This document shows positions 5,798-32,935 of a stretch of 64,000 nt of DNA, piece by piece (the first letter of the stretch is position 1; each line of letters starts with the position of its first letter). The position numbers and the translations under genes are program-made. Under the pieces are notes generated by a model. The model was not told the DNA's origin. It did not search any database and saw only the letters and a list, made by a program, of their open reading frames with translations. Source of the stretch: Rhizomicrobium sp. Lineage in GTDB: Bacteria; Pseudomonadota; Alphaproteobacteria; Micropepsales; Micropepsaceae. Location: positions 11,214 to 75,213 of the forward strand of contig DATAYG010000079.1 in the NCBI GenBank assembly GCA_036272695.1. Reading direction: 5' to 3'.

Positions 5798-6885
5798 GCT
5801 GGTCCTGGACTCTCTATCAGTATCTGGCGCGCCAGTTCCTGGTGGCGGTCGGCATCATGTTCGCCGGCTTTGCCTTCCTGTCCTTTTCCATCGATCTCGT
5901 CGATCTTCTCGACCGGACGGGCGACAGACATGTCCCCACGATTGCTGTCGTCGCCATGGCTTTGCTGCAGCTGCCTGACCTGGCGCTGAAGCTATTGCCG
6001 TTCGCCGTTCTTCTCGGGGGCATCTTTGCTTTCGTTCGACTCTCACGCAGCCATGAGCTGCAGGCGATCCGCGCCGCCGGCGTCTCCGCCTGGAATCTTC
6101 TCGTTGCTCCGCTCAGTGTGGCGCTTGCTTTAGGCGTAGTCGCGGTCGTGGCATTTACGCCGCTCGCGTCGGGCCTTCTTGTGCAGTATTCGGAAATGGA
6201 AGCCAGGTTGATCCGGGGACAGGCTTCGCAGCTCGCCATTTCGTCGAACGGTCTGTGGCTGCGGCAGGGCGACGCAAAGGCGCAGTCGGTGATCCACGCC
6301 TTGCGCGTCTCCGATCAGGGCGTGAAGCTCGAAGATGTAACGATCTTCCTTTACGGCGCCGCCGACAATTTCCTGGGCCGCATCGATGCGCGCTCGGCTG
6401 CGCTCGGCAAAGGCAGCTGGACGCTTGACGATGCCTGGATCAGCGGCACGACCGCGCAGCTCCACCACTACCCGACCTATCATCTTCCGACCAGGCTTAC
6501 GCCCACGCGCATTCAGGAAAGTTTCGCGGCGCCGGATACGCTGTCGTTCTGGGCATTGCCGGGATTCATCGAAACCGCGCGCCAGGCCGGCTTCTCTGCG
6601 ACGCGCTATCTGCTCTACTATGATTCGCTGCTGATGCTGCCGGCGATGTTCGCCGCCATGGTCCTGATCGCCGCAAGTTTCTCGCTGCGGCTTGCCCGGC
6701 TTGGCGGCCTTGGGCGGATCATTATCCTTGGTACGCTTGCGGGTTTTGGTGTCTATTTTCTCAGCGCGCTAACGCGGGCGTTGGGTGAATCCGGAATACT
6801 GCCTGTTCCGCTTGCCGCGGCAGCACCGGCCAGCGTTGCAATCCTTCTGGGAATGACGCTCCTGTTCCACCAGGAGGATGGCTGA
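5794..6885 (+). CDS. lptG: LPS export ABC transporter permease LptG
   Basis: LYQYLARQF...RLSRSHELQAIRAAGVSAW...LWLRQG...LLFHQEDG; ATGA overlap with lptF. Confidence 0.92.
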   Translation: MSWSWTLYQYLARQFLVAVGIMFAGFAFLSFSIDLVDLLDRTGDRHVPTIAVVAMALLQLPDLALKLLPFAVLLGGIFAFVRLSRSHELQAIRAAGVSAWNLLVAPLSVALALGVVAVVAFTPLASGLLVQYSEMEARLIRGQASQLAISSNGLWLRQGDAKAQSVIHALRVSDQGVKLEDVTIFLYGAADNFLGRIDARSAALGKGSWTLDDAWISGTTAQLHHYPTYHLPTRLTPTRIQESFAAPDTLSFWALPGFIETARQAGFSATRYLLYYDSLLMLPAMFAAMVLIAASFSLRLARLGGLGRIIILGTLAGFGVYFLSALTRALGESGILPVPLAAAAPASVAILLGMTLLFHQEDG

Positions 6886-27999: not shown

Positions 28000-28124
28000 C
28001 ACCCCCGCCCTTTCGGGGCGCTGGGCTCAATGACTGGCCCGCTCGTCGGGCCGGTTGGTCTGGAGGCTAAGTCCCGGACCGTGACATCGAGGGCGCTGCT
28101 TCGGCAGCGCCCTTCGTCGTTTCT
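28000..28124 (+). ncRNA. Candidate structured small RNA (unassigned)
   Basis: Upstream TTGATT-17bp-GATAAG(T); four consecutive hairpins, the last AGGGCGCTGC-TTCG-GCAGCGCCCT (28090-28113). No family assignment possible without Rfam. Confidence 0.35.
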
Positions 28125-28560
28125 ACGGATTGTTGACGGTGATCACGGCACGACGTCCTTCCACCGAGTCGGAAACATAGCCGACGGAACCCACGAATCT
28201 TACATCGATCAGATTGCGATCGACGCCGTTACCTATCAGCGCCTCGGCGACCGTGTTCGCGCGGGCTGCGGACAAGTTTTTGTCCTGTTCGATCGTTCCC
28301 CGCGGGTCCGTGTAACCGATGACGGTCACGCGCACATGTCCGTCCCTCACGATCCGATGCGCGGCGGCGGTCACGACAGTCTTGCCGCCCGCTTCCAGAC
28401 GCGACGACCACGGCGTGAAGAACACGACATAACGCGCTTTCGCGTCCGGCAGCGGCGTCATTGTGCCTGTATGATTCGCCGTCTGTTGCGGCGTCTGGCA
28501 GCCCAGGAGAACCATCCCCGCCACCGCCACCAGAAAAATCCTGCTCGCCATCCGGGTCAT
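28123..28560 (-). CDS. OmpA-family lipoprotein
   Basis: LLGC lipobox; VTVIGYTD...NLSAARANTVAEAL...EGRRAVI OmpA C-domain. Confidence 0.85.
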   Translation of the reverse strand: MTRMASRIFLVAVAGMVLLGCQTPQQTANHTGTMTPLPDAKARYVVFFTPWSSRLEAGGKTVVTAAAHRIVRDGHVRVTVIGYTDPRGTIEQDKNLSAARANTVAEALIGNGVDRNLIDVRFVGSVGYVSDSVEGRRAVITVNNP

Positions 28561-28731
28561 GCGCATCCCCTCCAAATCACAAATTAAACCCTAAAGCCGC
28601 ATGGTGAAAGGATTGTTAAGCCCGTGAGCTGAGCCCGACCGGACCTGCACCGACACATGGCATGCTTCCACAGGCCCGGCATGAGGAAATCCGAATTTGC
28701 ATCGACACCGGCGCCGATGGCGGTAAGACGC

Positions 28732-28760
28732 CCCTCATGCTGAGCCCGTCGAAGCACGCA
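28732..28760. repeat. REP-like element (CTTCGAC.GGCTC core), copy 2, inverse orientation
   Basis: CCCTCATGCTGAGCCCGTCGAAGCACGCA; its reverse complement aligns to 16741-16765. Confidence 0.5.
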
Positions 28761-28865
28761 TATTGCCAGTCCAGGGTGATTGGGTGATCGCCTGCGCTGC
28801 CGAGTTTGCCGCGATCAGGAAGAACAATTGTCCGACGAAGATCTGGTTGCCATCCCCCTCAAACG

Positions 28866-29354
28866 AGCCGGGTGAATGGCAACGCGGAGCGCAAGCACGT
28901 TTCGACAAGCTCTGTGGACCGTCAGAACCTCAATATCCGCATGGGCAATCGGCGCACGACGCGCCTCACGAATGCCTTCTCAAAAAAGACCGCGAACCAA
29001 GCCCACATGATGGCGATCTGCTTCATGCACTGCAATTTCGTGCGAATTCACAACACCCTGAAAATCACTCCGGCAACGGCTGCGGGCGTGTCAACCAAAC
29101 TTTGGGAAATGGCCGATATGGTCACGATCCTGGAAGCCGGGGAACGAAAACAGAGCTTGTCGTGATTTCCAAGACCGGGTGGGCTTTCATTGGCGCCCTG
29201 CTTTTCGCGGCGTTCGCGGTGACCATCGCGACGAACCCCCACAGCTACTTGCATGCTTGGTTTACTGGTCAGTGCCTTACGCGGCCGCTTCCGTCAGACT
29301 GCTACCACCGGCGCCGGCTTTGGTGAGGCGGCATCTTCAAACTGACCCACTACC
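28866..29354 (+). mobile_element. Truncated IS1-like element: transposase 3' fragment + small cargo ORF + right TIR
   Basis: RVNGNAERKHVSTSSVDRQNLNIRMGNRRTTRLTNAFSKK...KLWEMADMV aligns to the C-terminus of 29863..30705; ends in TTCAAACTGACCCACTACC (29336-29354). No left TIR or 5' part found. Confidence 0.85.
29162..29326 (+). CDS. 54-aa putative membrane/secreted cargo protein of the truncated element
   Basis: GTG overlaps the transposase-fragment TGA (GTGA); MISKTGWAFIGALLFAAFAVTIATNPHSYLHAWFTGQCLTRPLPSDCYHRRRLW, hydrophobic N-terminus and two Cys. Confidence 0.4.
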   Translation: MISKTGWAFIGALLFAAFAVTIATNPHSYLHAWFTGQCLTRPLPSDCYHRRRLW

Positions 29355-29395
29355 CGCCGCGGGTAGTGGTACAGTTTGAAAACATTTCGGTTGGG

Positions 29396-29866
29396 CTACG
29401 GGACCGTAATTTCGTAATGCGCTGACCACTGCCCTTGCGTGGCAGAGCCATTGCCTATGAAGTCGGTGAAGAGTTCGATCGTGTGAGGGCCGGGCGCCAC
29501 AGAATAGGAGTCTGACCAGTTGCCACCCCCACACGGCGCGGAGTTTGTGGCTCCTTCGCCAGCGTCAACTTGCGTGCCATCGACCGTCACGATGATATAA
29601 AATTGGTCACCGTTATATTGGGCGCAGAGTTGGTCCATGACACTTAAGGCAACGGTACAGCTAAGGTTGTCCTTTGGGCAATTAATCTTTGTTTTTGCAA
29701 CGCTATTGTATCCCACGGACAGAGGGGTGCCTGGATTTCCAGAATCGAGATAGACTTTAATTATCGTGTGCGGCCCGACACGTTGCGGTTCTGCAGCTTT
29801 ACAATCTGAGTCCGCGCCACCGATCAAAAGAAAACCGCACAATAACGAATAGAAGGGTGCCTTCAT
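29396..29866 (-). CDS. Secreted Cys-containing beta-rich hypothetical protein (IS cargo)
   Basis: ATG overlaps the transposase TGA (ATGA); MKAPFYSLLCGFLLIGGA signal-like N-terminus; alternating beta pattern (FYIIVTVDG, HTIELFT, HYEITVP). Confidence 0.65.
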   Translation of the reverse strand: MKAPFYSLLCGFLLIGGADSDCKAAEPQRVGPHTIIKVYLDSGNPGTPLSVGYNSVAKTKINCPKDNLSCTVALSVMDQLCAQYNGDQFYIIVTVDGTQVDAGEGATNSAPCGGGNWSDSYSVAPGPHTIELFTDFIGNGSATQGQWSAHYEITVP

Positions 29867-30705
29867 TGCCGTAGTTCCCAATCTTCGAGCACCTTCACCA
29901 TATCCGACATTTCCCAGAGTTTCGAGGTCACGCCAGCGGCCATCGCCGGGGTGACTTTCAAGGTCTGGTGAATGCGCACGAAATTGTAGTGCATGAAGTA
30001 GATCGCCATCATATGGGCGTGGTTTGCGGCTTTCTTTGAGAAGGCGTTCGTGAGCCTCGTCATGCGCCGGTTTCCCATACGGATATTGAGGTTCTGGCGC
30101 TCCACGTAGCTTGTGGAAACGTGCTTGCGCTCCGGGTTGCCGTTCACCCGATGCTTCTGCGTCCCAACGCATTCCGGCTGGCTGTAGCGGTGCTGGCCAT
30201 CGGTCGGCTGACCGTAAATCTTCACGAGTTGCGCGTAATCGACGTCGGCGCCGAAAGCCTCTTCGACCGCGTTCAGGTACGCCTTGTGCCCGTCGCTGGT
30301 GAGCTGGACGCGATTTGCGAGGCGCGGGGCCAAATCCGTCATGAAATCAAGTGCCGCTTCGCCATCTCGGTTGCCAACATAGAACGACGCGACAAGCTTC
30401 GTGTCCGCGTCCAGACCTACCCACGTCCAGATATCGCCAGAACCGACCGGAGCGGCTTTCGCGGTCGCGAGGTTCTTCTGCTTGCAATAAGAAAACGCCC
30501 ACGCCTCATCGACCTGAAGGCGCTTGCACGGCAGGTTCACAAGCGTCCGGTCCATGTATTCGGAAAATGCCTGCCCGGCATCCTCCAGAAGCTTAATCAG
30601 CGTGGTCCGGCTGATCCCGGTGAGGCGGGTCATGGAGCGGAGCGAAATGCCTTCGGCCATCATCTGGAGGGCTTGGGCGCGTTTCTCGGTCGGCAGCTTG
30701 TTCAT
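29863..30705 (-). CDS. IS1-family DDE transposase (single ORF)
   Basis: N-terminal HTH (EGISLRSMTRLTGISRTT), LQVDEAWAF, WTWVGLDADTKL, LTSDGHKAY, VERQNLNIRMGNRRMTRLTNAFSKK. Confidence 0.88.
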   Translation of the reverse strand: MNKLPTEKRAQALQMMAEGISLRSMTRLTGISRTTLIKLLEDAGQAFSEYMDRTLVNLPCKRLQVDEAWAFSYCKQKNLATAKAAPVGSGDIWTWVGLDADTKLVASFYVGNRDGEAALDFMTDLAPRLANRVQLTSDGHKAYLNAVEEAFGADVDYAQLVKIYGQPTDGQHRYSQPECVGTQKHRVNGNPERKHVSTSYVERQNLNIRMGNRRMTRLTNAFSKKAANHAHMMAIYFMHYNFVRIHQTLKVTPAMAAGVTSKLWEMSDMVKVLEDWELRQ

Positions 30706-30830
30706 GCCGTTAAACTGGCATTTTAATGCTTGACTGTCAACAAGTATCCACAGTTTTTCTACAATTTAGACGTTTACTTCTACAACTAAGGCGCCTACTT
30801 CAATAAGTGACGCTGTTTTAGGGGTCATGT

Positions 30831-32096
30831 ATGGCGCCCAGATCACCGGACGATTGGCAAATGCTGCATTACGAGGCGATGCAGCTGTTCAGCCCGTCTG
30901 CTCCAGTGGACGAAGCGGACCTTTTTGCGGGGCGCCAAGTTCAGATTCGGAAATTAATCGAAACCGTCCTGGAGCGCGGCAAGCACGCCGTCCTATTTGG
31001 CGAGCGTGGGGTGGGGAAAACTTCACTCGCGAAAGTTTTCCGCGTTTTGTTCCCGGCCCTTGTGAGCGAAGTGCGTCTGATAAGGCAACAGTTGAATGCA
31101 GACGATTCGTTCTCGGAAGTTTGGAAAAAGATATTCAAAGAAATTGAGGTTGTCGTCCGTTCAGATGGCGAGGAAAAGCGCATCACTGCCGCCGATTTTT
31201 ACGATAGCACAATCTCTGCAGATGATGTCGTCCGAGAGATAAAAACAGCATTTGGGGGGAATGAGATTCCTGTGATTGTATTTGACGAATTTGATCGCGC
31301 CACCGAAAGCGTTCGTCGGCAGATGGCAAATGTCGTCAAGGACCTGTCCGACGATTCCGTAAATGCCACAGTTGTCATTGTCGGCGTGTCAGATGACATC
31401 GGCGGCCTCCTCGCGGAGCACGCTTCCCTGAAACGCTGCCTTGAACAAGTGCCAATGCCGAGAATGTCCAATGACGAAATGAAGGAAATCATAAACAAGA
31501 GAATTCCCCGTCTGGGAATGAAGATCGAGCCGAATGGATTGTGGAAAATAGTTATCCTGTCTCGTGGGCTGCCTTCGTATGTCCATTTGCTCGGAGTTTA
31601 TTCCGTTCAGGAAGCCATATCGGGGCGCAAATTGCTAATTACTGAAGCGCACGTTGATGCCGCGATTACTAGGGCCTTAGAAAAGTCACAGGAATCGGTA
31701 CGAAGCGATTACGCGGCTGCGATACACACGAACCGTACGGATACTCTATTCCAAGAAGTATTGTTGTCTTGCGCTCTAGCTAAGACCGATGATCGCGGGT
31801 TTTTCACGCCCCAATCCGTTGTCGACCCGTTGGCATCTATACTCAAGAAGTCCGTTAAGATCGCGAACTTTCAAAACCATTTGAAAGAATTCATCGGTAA
31901 AGATAGAGGTGCCATACTTATACGCCGTGGGAAGGAACGCGCCTACAAGTTCCGTTTCTCTGACCCTATGATGCAACCTTACATCATCATGAGGGGCGTG
32001 GAAGGTGGCCTGATTCAGACTAATGCTCTTGACGTTCTTTCTTCGCCTGAGCAGCCGCAGTTCCAGTTCCCCACCGCGCCTCAGAAGCCTTCTTAG
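30831..32096 (+). CDS. AAA+/STAND-like ATPase with probable C-terminal winged helix (IS cargo)
   Basis: LFAGRQVQIRKL, Walker A GERGVGKT, Walker B VIVFDEFD, GLPSYVHLLG; AT-richer than the host genes. Confidence 0.75.
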   Translation: MAPRSPDDWQMLHYEAMQLFSPSAPVDEADLFAGRQVQIRKLIETVLERGKHAVLFGERGVGKTSLAKVFRVLFPALVSEVRLIRQQLNADDSFSEVWKKIFKEIEVVVRSDGEEKRITAADFYDSTISADDVVREIKTAFGGNEIPVIVFDEFDRATESVRRQMANVVKDLSDDSVNATVVIVGVSDDIGGLLAEHASLKRCLEQVPMPRMSNDEMKEIINKRIPRLGMKIEPNGLWKIVILSRGLPSYVHLLGVYSVQEAISGRKLLITEAHVDAAITRALEKSQESVRSDYAAAIHTNRTDTLFQEVLLSCALAKTDDRGFFTPQSVVDPLASILKKSVKIANFQNHLKEFIGKDRGAILIRRGKERAYKFRFSDPMMQPYIIMRGVEGGLIQTNALDVLSSPEQPQFQFPTAPQKPS

Positions 32097-32304
32097 CAAT
32101 TTCTCGGCGCCTTTCTGGGGTAAGGCGTTCGGCCCTCGATTTTCCGCCCTTCAATCCACCCTTACGGGCAAATTCGTGGACACGGTCGATTGGCTTTGGA
32201 GTCGGCTCTGTGGCCTTATCCTCCACCTCTCCGGTCAAGATATCCCCGATAAGCTTGCCTAGCTGGACGGGATCGCGGGGGCGTTTGAGGCGCTTGGCTG
32301 TCAT
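32020..32304 (-). CDS. Small basic protein (KRPRDP / RKGGLKGG...RRREIAKKA motif) next to the IS end
   Basis: MTAKRLKRPRDPVQLGKLIGDILTGE...FARKGGLKGGKSRAERLTPERRREIAKKASEARW; KGG-like basic motif. Confidence 0.7.
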   Translation of the reverse strand: MTAKRLKRPRDPVQLGKLIGDILTGEVEDKATEPTPKPIDRVHEFARKGGLKGGKSRAERLTPERRREIAKKASEARWGTGTAAAQAKKERQEH

Positions 32305-32557
32305 GTTCGCAATATGGCATCCGGGGCGGCAGGATGCGAGCGTGGCTTAGGCGGGGCGGATTTCAAACTGTACCACTACCCCGCCGCGCCTTCCCTTGCC
32401 CCCCACCCCGCTTTCCTATATACGCCGCGGCCTTATGGCGGCTGCGGTCGCGGGACGCCCCTTTCGAGGCGCATGCCGGATGGTCCGGCTTCTCCGCGAG
32501 CCAATGCGAGCCTGGGCACCCTGCCCGGGTACGTACCGCAGCCCGGAAAGGGACGAG

Positions 32558-32935
32558 ATGGCTCTTTACGAGCACCTCCTGATCGCGCGCCAGGATATCA
32601 GCGCGCAACAGGTCGACGCACTGGCGACGCACCTGAAAACCATCGTCGAAGGCGAAGGCGGCAAGGTCGAGAAGCAGGAATATTGGGGCCTGCGCTCGCT
32701 CGCCTACCGTATCAAGAAGAACCGCAAGGGGCATTATGTGCTCCTGAACATCAATGCGCCGGCCAAGGCGGTGCACGAACTGGAACGGCAGCTCAGGATC
32801 AATGAAGACGTGCTGCGCTGCCTGACCGTGAAAGTCGACCAGTTCGAGCAGTCGAATTCCAACAAGGCAAGGCGGGAGCGTGACGGCGAGCGCAAGCCCG
32901 AAGGCGAAACCCAAACCCAGGAGGCCGCGATATGA
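32558..32935 (+). CDS. rpsF: 30S ribosomal protein S6
   Basis: [13 protein letters not shown]...[20 protein letters not shown]...INEDVLR. Start ATG 32558. Confidence 0.97.

Follow-up and report, generated by a model that had tools for sequence, protein, structure and literature searches.

Abutting IS1-family cargo elements point to insertion beside resident terminal inverted repeats

The window, by which we mean the whole 64 kb stretch of Rhizomicrobium sp. DNA that was analysed, harbours two related elements that together fill the space separating two divergent genes, an OmpA-family gene and rpsF, and lie about 170 bp upstream of the latter (Table 1). The left element is a relic that ends in a single terminal inverted repeat (TIR), while the right element is intact, with TIRs that are perfect over 19 bp (21 bp; inverted repeat I13). 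The two meet tip to tip. Only the letters CGCCGCG (29355–29361) lie between the relic TIR and the TIR of the intact element, such that the abutting ends form a 22/22-nt palindrome with 91% complementarity. The intact element is bordered by a perfect 8 bp target-site duplication (TSD), CCGCCGCG, and no alternative register yields a duplication. When the TIR 19-mer is searched with up to three mismatches, only three sites are picked up in the 64 kb, these being the relic TIR and both ends of the intact element; the same search in 100 shuffles, used as a control, found none. The coordinates, the TIRs, the 8 bp TSD and the 7 bp gap given in the original prediction all proved correct on re-reading the window, as did its remark that the TSD takes in the last base of the old TIR, which corresponds to an overlap of one base.

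Table 1. Features of the window and, in the last row, short derivatives of the family at other loci (coordinates there refer to the locus named).
Feature	Coordinates	Strand	Basis or remark
OmpA-family lipoprotein, flanking host gene	28123..28575	-	Pfam OmpA, E = 4.3e-11
Truncated relative (relic, 'old' element): last ~100 transposase codons, 54-aa ORF, terminal TIR	28867..29354	+	Homology, tblastn
Relic TIR, TTCAAACTGACCCACTACC on the plus strand, GGTAGTGGGTCAGTTTGAA on the minus strand, 'GGGTC' subtype	29336..29354	-	Identical 19-mer in many other elements
Junction: TIR, 7 bp spacer, TIR; quasi-palindromic, 45 bp	29336..29380	.	Inverted repeat I16
TSD CCGCCGCG, 8 bp, left copy	29354..29361	.	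First base is the tip of the relic TIR
Intact IS1-family cargo-carrying IS, 3019 bp ('new' element)	29362..32380	-	TIRs (I13), 8 bp TSD
Tail TIR of the intact element, GGTAGTGGTACAGTTTGAA	29362..29380	+	19-mer search
Passenger ORF, 156 aa, hydrophobic N-terminus, overlaps the transposase stop	29396..29866	-	Called as gene
Transposase, 280 aa, N-terminal HTH, conserved D66, D138, E202	29863..30705	-	Pfam, NCBIfam, 82-sequence comparison
Passenger gene, nSTAND1-type STAND NTPase, 421 aa, divergent from the transposase	30831..32096	+	Pfam PF20703, E = 1.5e-13
Small basic ORF, 94 aa, at the element head	32020..32304	-	ORF call
Head TIR of the intact element, inverted copy of GGTAGTGGTACAGTTTGAA	32362..32380	-	19-mer search
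TSD CCGCCGCG, right copy	32381..32388	.	Sequence reading
rpsF (ribosomal protein S6), flanking host gene	32558..32935	+	Pfam Ribosomal_S6, E = 1.8e-31; gene call
MITE-like derivatives	L010:7383-7574; L073:4067-4190; L096; L118; L152		

The transposase of the intact element is recognised weakly by the Pfam model DDE_Tnp_IS1 (PF03400; 26.1 bits, cutoff 24.1) and by the NCBIfam IS1 model NF033558 (E = 1.9e-13), where its score of 50.8 bits lies below the equivalog cutoff of 100. Homologues with 57–92% identity are labelled as IS1 family transposases (JGI, NCBI), a label that thousands of homologues in soil bacteria carry. D66, D138 and E202 followed by an RxNL motif are conserved across 82 sequences, down to 48% identity. 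The tip of the TIR reads GGTAGTG, compared with GGTAATG and GGTGATG in IS1A, and agrees with the IS1 pattern GGT(A/G)(A/G)TG. The classical arrangement of InsA plus an InsAB' protein made by -1 frameshifting is absent, and in its place stands a single uninterrupted ORF of 280 aa that has an N-terminal HTH of its own. Single-ORF IS1 members are recognised by ISfinder, so that the missing frameshift excludes the element from the classical subgroup and not from the IS1 family.

Between its TIRs the element carries passengers, in agreement with the description of a transporter IS (tIS): the nSTAND1 NTPase, the 156-aa ORF and the 94-aa ORF are all contained within 29362–32380. Family searches gave no match for the 156-aa ORF, and no family match was obtained for the basic 94-aa ORF in Pfam, NCBIfam and PADLOC. 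A PADLOC search of the cargo, the nSTAND1 NTPase included, did not result in a significant match. A second copy of the intact element is present in the same metagenome, where one Logan assembly contains a loose end at 29363 that is joined to another flank. In both the intact element and the relic, the ORF downstream of the transposase starts on its stop codon (29863–29866 and 29162–29165, with ATGA and GTGA overlaps, respectively), and these two downstream ORFs are unrelated to each other.

The homology of the relic to all of its relatives begins at 28867–28872. Nucleotides 28869–29145 are 83% identical to 30150–29874 of the intact element, and in tblastn the relic covers residues 179–280 of the transposase with 75% identity and without a stop codon. 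At the breakpoint at 28867 no TIR and no other IS was found that explains the truncation. The relic TIR is not a decayed copy: at both positions where it differs, it agrees with another common subtype, GGTAGTGGGTCAGTTTGAA with the GGGTC core, which it matches perfectly. The approximately 20 bp just inside this TIR (29316–29354) resemble the head of the intact element (32344–32380), with 83% identity over 47 bp including the TIR; this end with head-like subterminal sequence nevertheless adjoins the 3' end of the relic transposase gene. Gene conversion was dismissed as an explanation since the match is too short to support it. The heads of the family carry a common GC-rich subterminal motif, and the likeness may stem from this shared motif or from chance.

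The rules followed by the family were derived from 79 loci picked by transposase similarity only, together with the window. In this set, conservation of the family TIR extends across Alphaproteobacteria, Acidobacteriota and Bacteroidota. A perfect 8 bp TSD is present in 52 of the 57 elements that could be delimited, within the range of 8 or 9 bp given for IS1 (PMC12428005). Two cultured species, Mesorhizobium loti and Acidiphilium multivorum, show the same 8 bp TSD in their finished plasmids, and long-read MAG chromosomes follow this rule as well. The family has a symmetric but weak target preference, with CAA 8–10 bp before the TSD and TTG 8–10 bp after it (CAA-N7-TSD-N7-TTG). The ends of the TSD favour G/C, as they do in IS1 itself, and the whole target motif amounts to about 4 bits (52 reconstructed sites from L001–L077 and the window). 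The elements range from about 1.2 to 4.9 kb in length and differ in their interiors, which makes them transporter ISs in the sense cited in PMC3129680. Related elements in finished plasmids (L201, Methylocapsa polymorpha pRX1; L202, an Acidiphilium multivorum plasmid) have as neighbours a gene for a Shedu nuclease, a pair of genes for an AAA ATPase and a UvrD helicase, and a toxin–antitoxin pair of the RES-Xre type; the position of these neighbours inside or outside the elements was judged only roughly, from the positions of the TIRs.

The junction in the window is present without any difference in two independent Logan assemblies of soil-metagenome runs (contigs corresponding to 28712–29812 and 28400–29937), although these runs may be the source samples. 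The cruciform-prone character of the junction is only a prediction: as DNA, the 45 bp are predicted to fold into a hairpin with -19.4 kcal/mol (z = -7.9).

Six pairs of outward-facing TIRs in the transposase-selected loci and the window are 7–8 bp apart (one each in the window, L002, L010 and L030, and two in L073), such that 12 of the 169 TIR ends in the 79 loci plus the window are part of such a junction. By our own estimate about 0.03 junctions are expected by chance (Poisson p ~1e-12). In every case that could be resolved, the spacer behaves as a TSD. In L010 the 8-mer CGGGGGTA flanks the full element, and its right copy directly abuts the TIR of a 192 bp MITE-like element. The latter is in turn flanked by the same CGGGGGTA, which here overlaps the next TIR by 4 bp. 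The arrangement in L030 is similar, with GCCGGGTC flanking a unit and abutting the neighbouring TIR. In L073 an old TIR is followed by a 124 bp MITE-like element and a full element, with GAATTTA and CGAATTTA as separators; the full element ends with CGAATTTA, and this 8-mer is common to three consecutive elements. Arrays of three or four elements are present at eight loci, in keeping with the original prediction that targeting of this kind builds arrays. MITE-like derivatives of about 90–420 bp with family TIRs and 8 bp TSDs are common partners in these arrays (Table 1).

The unit at L030:5398-7039, which has the perfect TSD GCCGGGTC, is made up of two tail fragments that join head to head at about position 6003. 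Residues 277–216 of the transposase (minus strand) here meet residues 38–279 (plus strand), and the TIR subtypes differ. It appears to be a chimera of two elements that moved as one unit.

Metagenome contigs were scanned for two outward-facing TIR cores with any gap from 0 to 30 bp; this selects for junctions and hence yields a gap distribution, not a frequency. At least 120 contigs matched, and at least 115 unique junctions were obtained. For the 115 listed, gaps of 4, 5, 6, 7, 8, 9, 10, 11 and 26 bp are found in 3, 2, 4, 8, 88, 7, 1, 1 and 1 cases, respectively, so that 103 of them fall at 7–9 bp. The TIR subtypes on the two sides differ in 67 of the 115 listed junctions, meaning that two different elements meet there. 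Not all of the junction loci are distinct, since some represent one locus that is shared by related organisms; the spacers of L010 and L153, for example, are reverse complements of each other. The junction pattern was also searched for in viral contigs and was not found there.

Whether the spacer equals the TSD of one of the partners can be read from the flank of its far end. Among the matches listed, 41 far ends are assessable. The flank matches the spacer exactly in 15 of these (chance 1.5e-5 for each) and with one mismatch in six, giving 21 of 41 in addition to the window, L010, L030 and L073. In 19 of the 41 the flank is unlike the spacer, which may be due to a wrongly paired end, to decay or to another route to the junction. 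Junctions of 7 and 9 bp fit too, with the TSD moved by one base (L173, L171, L192 and L162). At L176:3440-6065 the junction spacer CTCTTAGT and the 8-mer at the far end of that element, ACTAAGAG, are exact reverse complements. This single case would fit an inversion of the spacer within the TIR–spacer–TIR quasi-palindrome.

Either end of an element can abut. Heads do so in 20 cases and tails in 33 among the matches listed, and tandem, head-to-head (L149) and tail-to-tail (window) pairs all occur. The tail-to-tail palindrome that was highlighted in the original prediction is therefore present in the window as described, but it is one outcome among several and does not represent a rule. The central claim, that the transposase targets sites beside cognate TIRs, is supported by the six junctions found where about 0.03 are expected and by the 88 of 115 listed junctions in which the gap is precisely 8 bp. 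To check this claim, it was proposed to measure for many insertions how far away the nearest family TIR lies, and this distance is far from random in both data sets.

As the data are mostly metagenome assemblies, in which short repeats can cause misjoins, one may ask whether the junctions arose by chance or through misassembly at a short inverted repeat. We consider this hardly credible. The junction in the window is reproduced by two further assemblies, and the triplet of TIRs appears in none of the shuffles. The 8 bp peak is sharp among 31 allowed gap values, and the same TSD rule holds in long-read MAG chromosomes. No foldbacks were found among the junctions listed: their interiors reach a mirror identity of no more than 0.44, which rules out foldback artefacts as their source, and most of the listed junctions join different TIR subtypes.

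The arrangement is best explained by insertion of one member of a large soil clade of cargo-carrying IS1-family elements into the 8 bp directly outside the TIR of another. On the basis of the junctions described above, we regard it as probable that the tip-to-tip pair in the window arose in this way and that such insertion is a habit of the entire clade.

The weak target preference of the family provides a different way to arrive at abutted ends. After a first insertion into an unusually favourable target, each flank would retain one half-site (CAA 8–10 bp outside the TSD) that could guide a second, independent insertion into the same 8-mer, and a hot spot would then be re-used without any recognition of the TIR. 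The required symmetric preference CAA-N7-[8 bp]-N7-TTG indeed exists, and in the window, L010 and L030 an in-register CAA is found on the side facing away from the resident TIR. However, over half of all sites have this CAA, and its presence at junctions is thus uninformative. With a motif of about 4 bits, a genome of 4 Mb offers in the order of 1e5 equally good sites, so that one would not expect about 60 elements to show re-use at six junctions. Where the gap is 7 or 9 bp, which corresponds to an offset of -1 or +1 from the resident tip, the TSD logic is retained, as expected if it is the tip that sets the position. Such re-use of a hot spot is consequently quite improbable. In a variant of this idea, the resident TIR would act as a mimic of the target. 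This was rejected, as TTG is located at positions 15–17 of the TIR while the motif needs it 8–10 bp outside the TSD; the generic target motif is absent from the resident TIR in the right register.

Alternatively, separate elements may have been joined end to end through an IS-dimer or IR–IR junction as in IS30, in which case the spacer is the flank of one of the partners and the arrangement is a by-product of rearrangement. Assemblies that are circular or tandem, with TIRs 6–8 bp apart, are in line with this idea. L089, L097, L138 and L150 have terminal overlaps of 127 nt and correspond to circular assemblies of complete elements of about 2.3–3.4 kb. Across the closed circle the TIRs are spaced by 8 bp in L089, L097 and L150 and by 6 bp in L138. 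These assemblies are either IS circles or tandem dimers, between which the assembly cannot distinguish. The 19 of 41 far ends (among the matches listed) with a flank unlike the spacer, as well as the truncation of the left element in the window, which a rearrangement might leave behind, also agree with end joining. On the other hand, the intact element has the same 8-mer at its far end (32381–32388), just as an ordinary insertion of both ends leaves it, and a matching far-end 8-mer is likewise seen in L010, L030, L073 and at least 21 metagenome cases. In addition, the two elements of the window are 83% identical and inverted relative to each other and are therefore not sister copies. Taken together, joining of separate elements is an improbable source of these junctions, and insertion beside the resident TIR remains our preferred reading.

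We infer the protein-level mechanism of this TIR-directed insertion from the sequences as follows. The transposase would make cuts with an 8 bp stagger, and a resident TIR of the family would steer these such that one strand transfer takes place at, or at most one base from, the resident tip, while the other takes place 8 bp further out on the opposite strand. The spacer between the two TIRs would then be one copy of the TSD of the incoming element. Transposase bound to the resident TIR may be drawn into the incoming transpososome, or may recruit it, with the resident end being handled like a partner end. The flank of this end would as a consequence become the target, following the logic that is proposed for IR targeting by IS30 and IS911 (PMC9333248). 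In its geometry, a flush insertion would involve the same two positions as the joining of an element's two ends to each other across a spacer of TSD length, as in the four circular or tandem assemblies (6–8 bp). IS1 is listed among the copy-out-paste-in families, which form junctions of this kind (PMC9333248; bioRxiv 10.1101/2023.06.07.543989), and the preprint cites circular forms of IS1 (its refs 7 and 8). Repeated insertion into the same 8-mer would generate arrays of full elements, MITE-like derivatives and relics.

Within the window, the intact and recently active 3019 bp element is most likely the later arrival, an order that is favoured by the presence of its second copy in the community. 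For a simple insertion the expected state prior to this event would be the relic alone, with CGCCGCGC and then rpsF after it. No empty-site allele was found when the exact proteins encoded by rpsF and the OmpA-like gene were looked up; the contigs recovered either carry the allele of the window or break off at the elements. Since the junction is symmetrical, a truncated element that inserts beside an intact one gives the same sequence, and the order is not proven.

Classical IS1 was compared using 5,426 E. coli genomes and gave no obvious excess of abutted ends. In 312 of 9,406 records the two types of end lie no more than about 545 bp apart. No abutment at 8–9 bp is present among the 40 records listed of these 312, which makes this a weak test. 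Given this outcome, docking at TIRs may be confined to the present clade. We favour, with moderate confidence, the wider reading that an IS1-family clade spanning Alphaproteobacteria, Acidobacteriota and Bacteroidota docks at the tips of resident TIRs in either orientation and across TIR subtypes, thereby stacking its members into cargo arrays rather than hitting genes. TIR-directed insertion that would be new for the IS1 family, is free of an orientation rule and is common in nature is the best reading of the genomic evidence. The benefit of a 'safe site' that was part of the original prediction is one that we only infer.

Insertion adjacent to a cognate IR has so far been a laboratory observation in IS30 and IS911. 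Here it would be encountered in a third family, in natural genomes, with base-pair precision and without an orientation rule. If true, IR-directed insertion would here be seen for the first time in nature and on a genome scale in a family other than IS3 and IS30, and it would provide a simple route by which small mobile cargo can cluster into islands. It would explain how relics, MITE-like derivatives and full elements become stacked in this family, and passengers such as STAND NTPases and toxin–antitoxin pairs could gather at a single locus while host genes are spared. It further offers a testable handle on target choice by IS1-family transpososomes. For annotation it suggests the rule that a TIR–8 bp–TIR arrangement is to be read as an element boundary and not as a palindromic regulatory site.

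In Tn3, Tn7 and Mu, target immunity causes resident ends to repel further insertions. The present family has in common with these systems that a resident end affects the site chosen by a second copy, with the difference that here the end attracts. E. coli IS1 (IS1A; InsA, InsAB') resembles our elements in its DDE transposase with IS1-type motifs and in its similar TIR tips. It differs from them in that the latter have a single 280-aa ORF without the InsA/InsB frameshift, are 2–5 kb long and carry passenger genes. The tISs of the IS1/IS1595 group (Siguier, Gagnevin and Chandler 2009, as cited in PMC3129680) are likewise IS-like elements with short TIRs and interior passengers that are unrelated to transposition. 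Homing to TIRs is not part of the tIS description which, as far as found, is silent on target choice.

In IS911 the spacer and the TSD are both 3 bp long. Both IS30 and IS911 are documented to insert beside a cognate IR, and dual target specificity is described for these two only (PMC9333248). As in these systems, a copy lands beside a resident cognate IR, which leads to abutted IRs (PMC9333248), and the length of the spacer equals that of the family TSD both in IS30 (2 bp; PMC9333248) and here (8 bp). A further likeness is that this spacing is seen again where the two ends of a single element meet in a circle or dimer (PMC9333248; 6–8 bp here). The transposase family is different, being IS1 in our case, and our evidence is genomic while that for IS30 and IS911 is experimental. 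IS30 exclusively forms IRL–IRR junctions (PMC9333248), whereas tail-to-tail, head-to-head and tandem arrangements are all observed here. Finally, the junctions of IS30 are highly reactive and short-lived in the laboratory, while those described here persist in genomes across several phyla and accumulate as arrays, and this persistence in many genomes would argue against strong instability.
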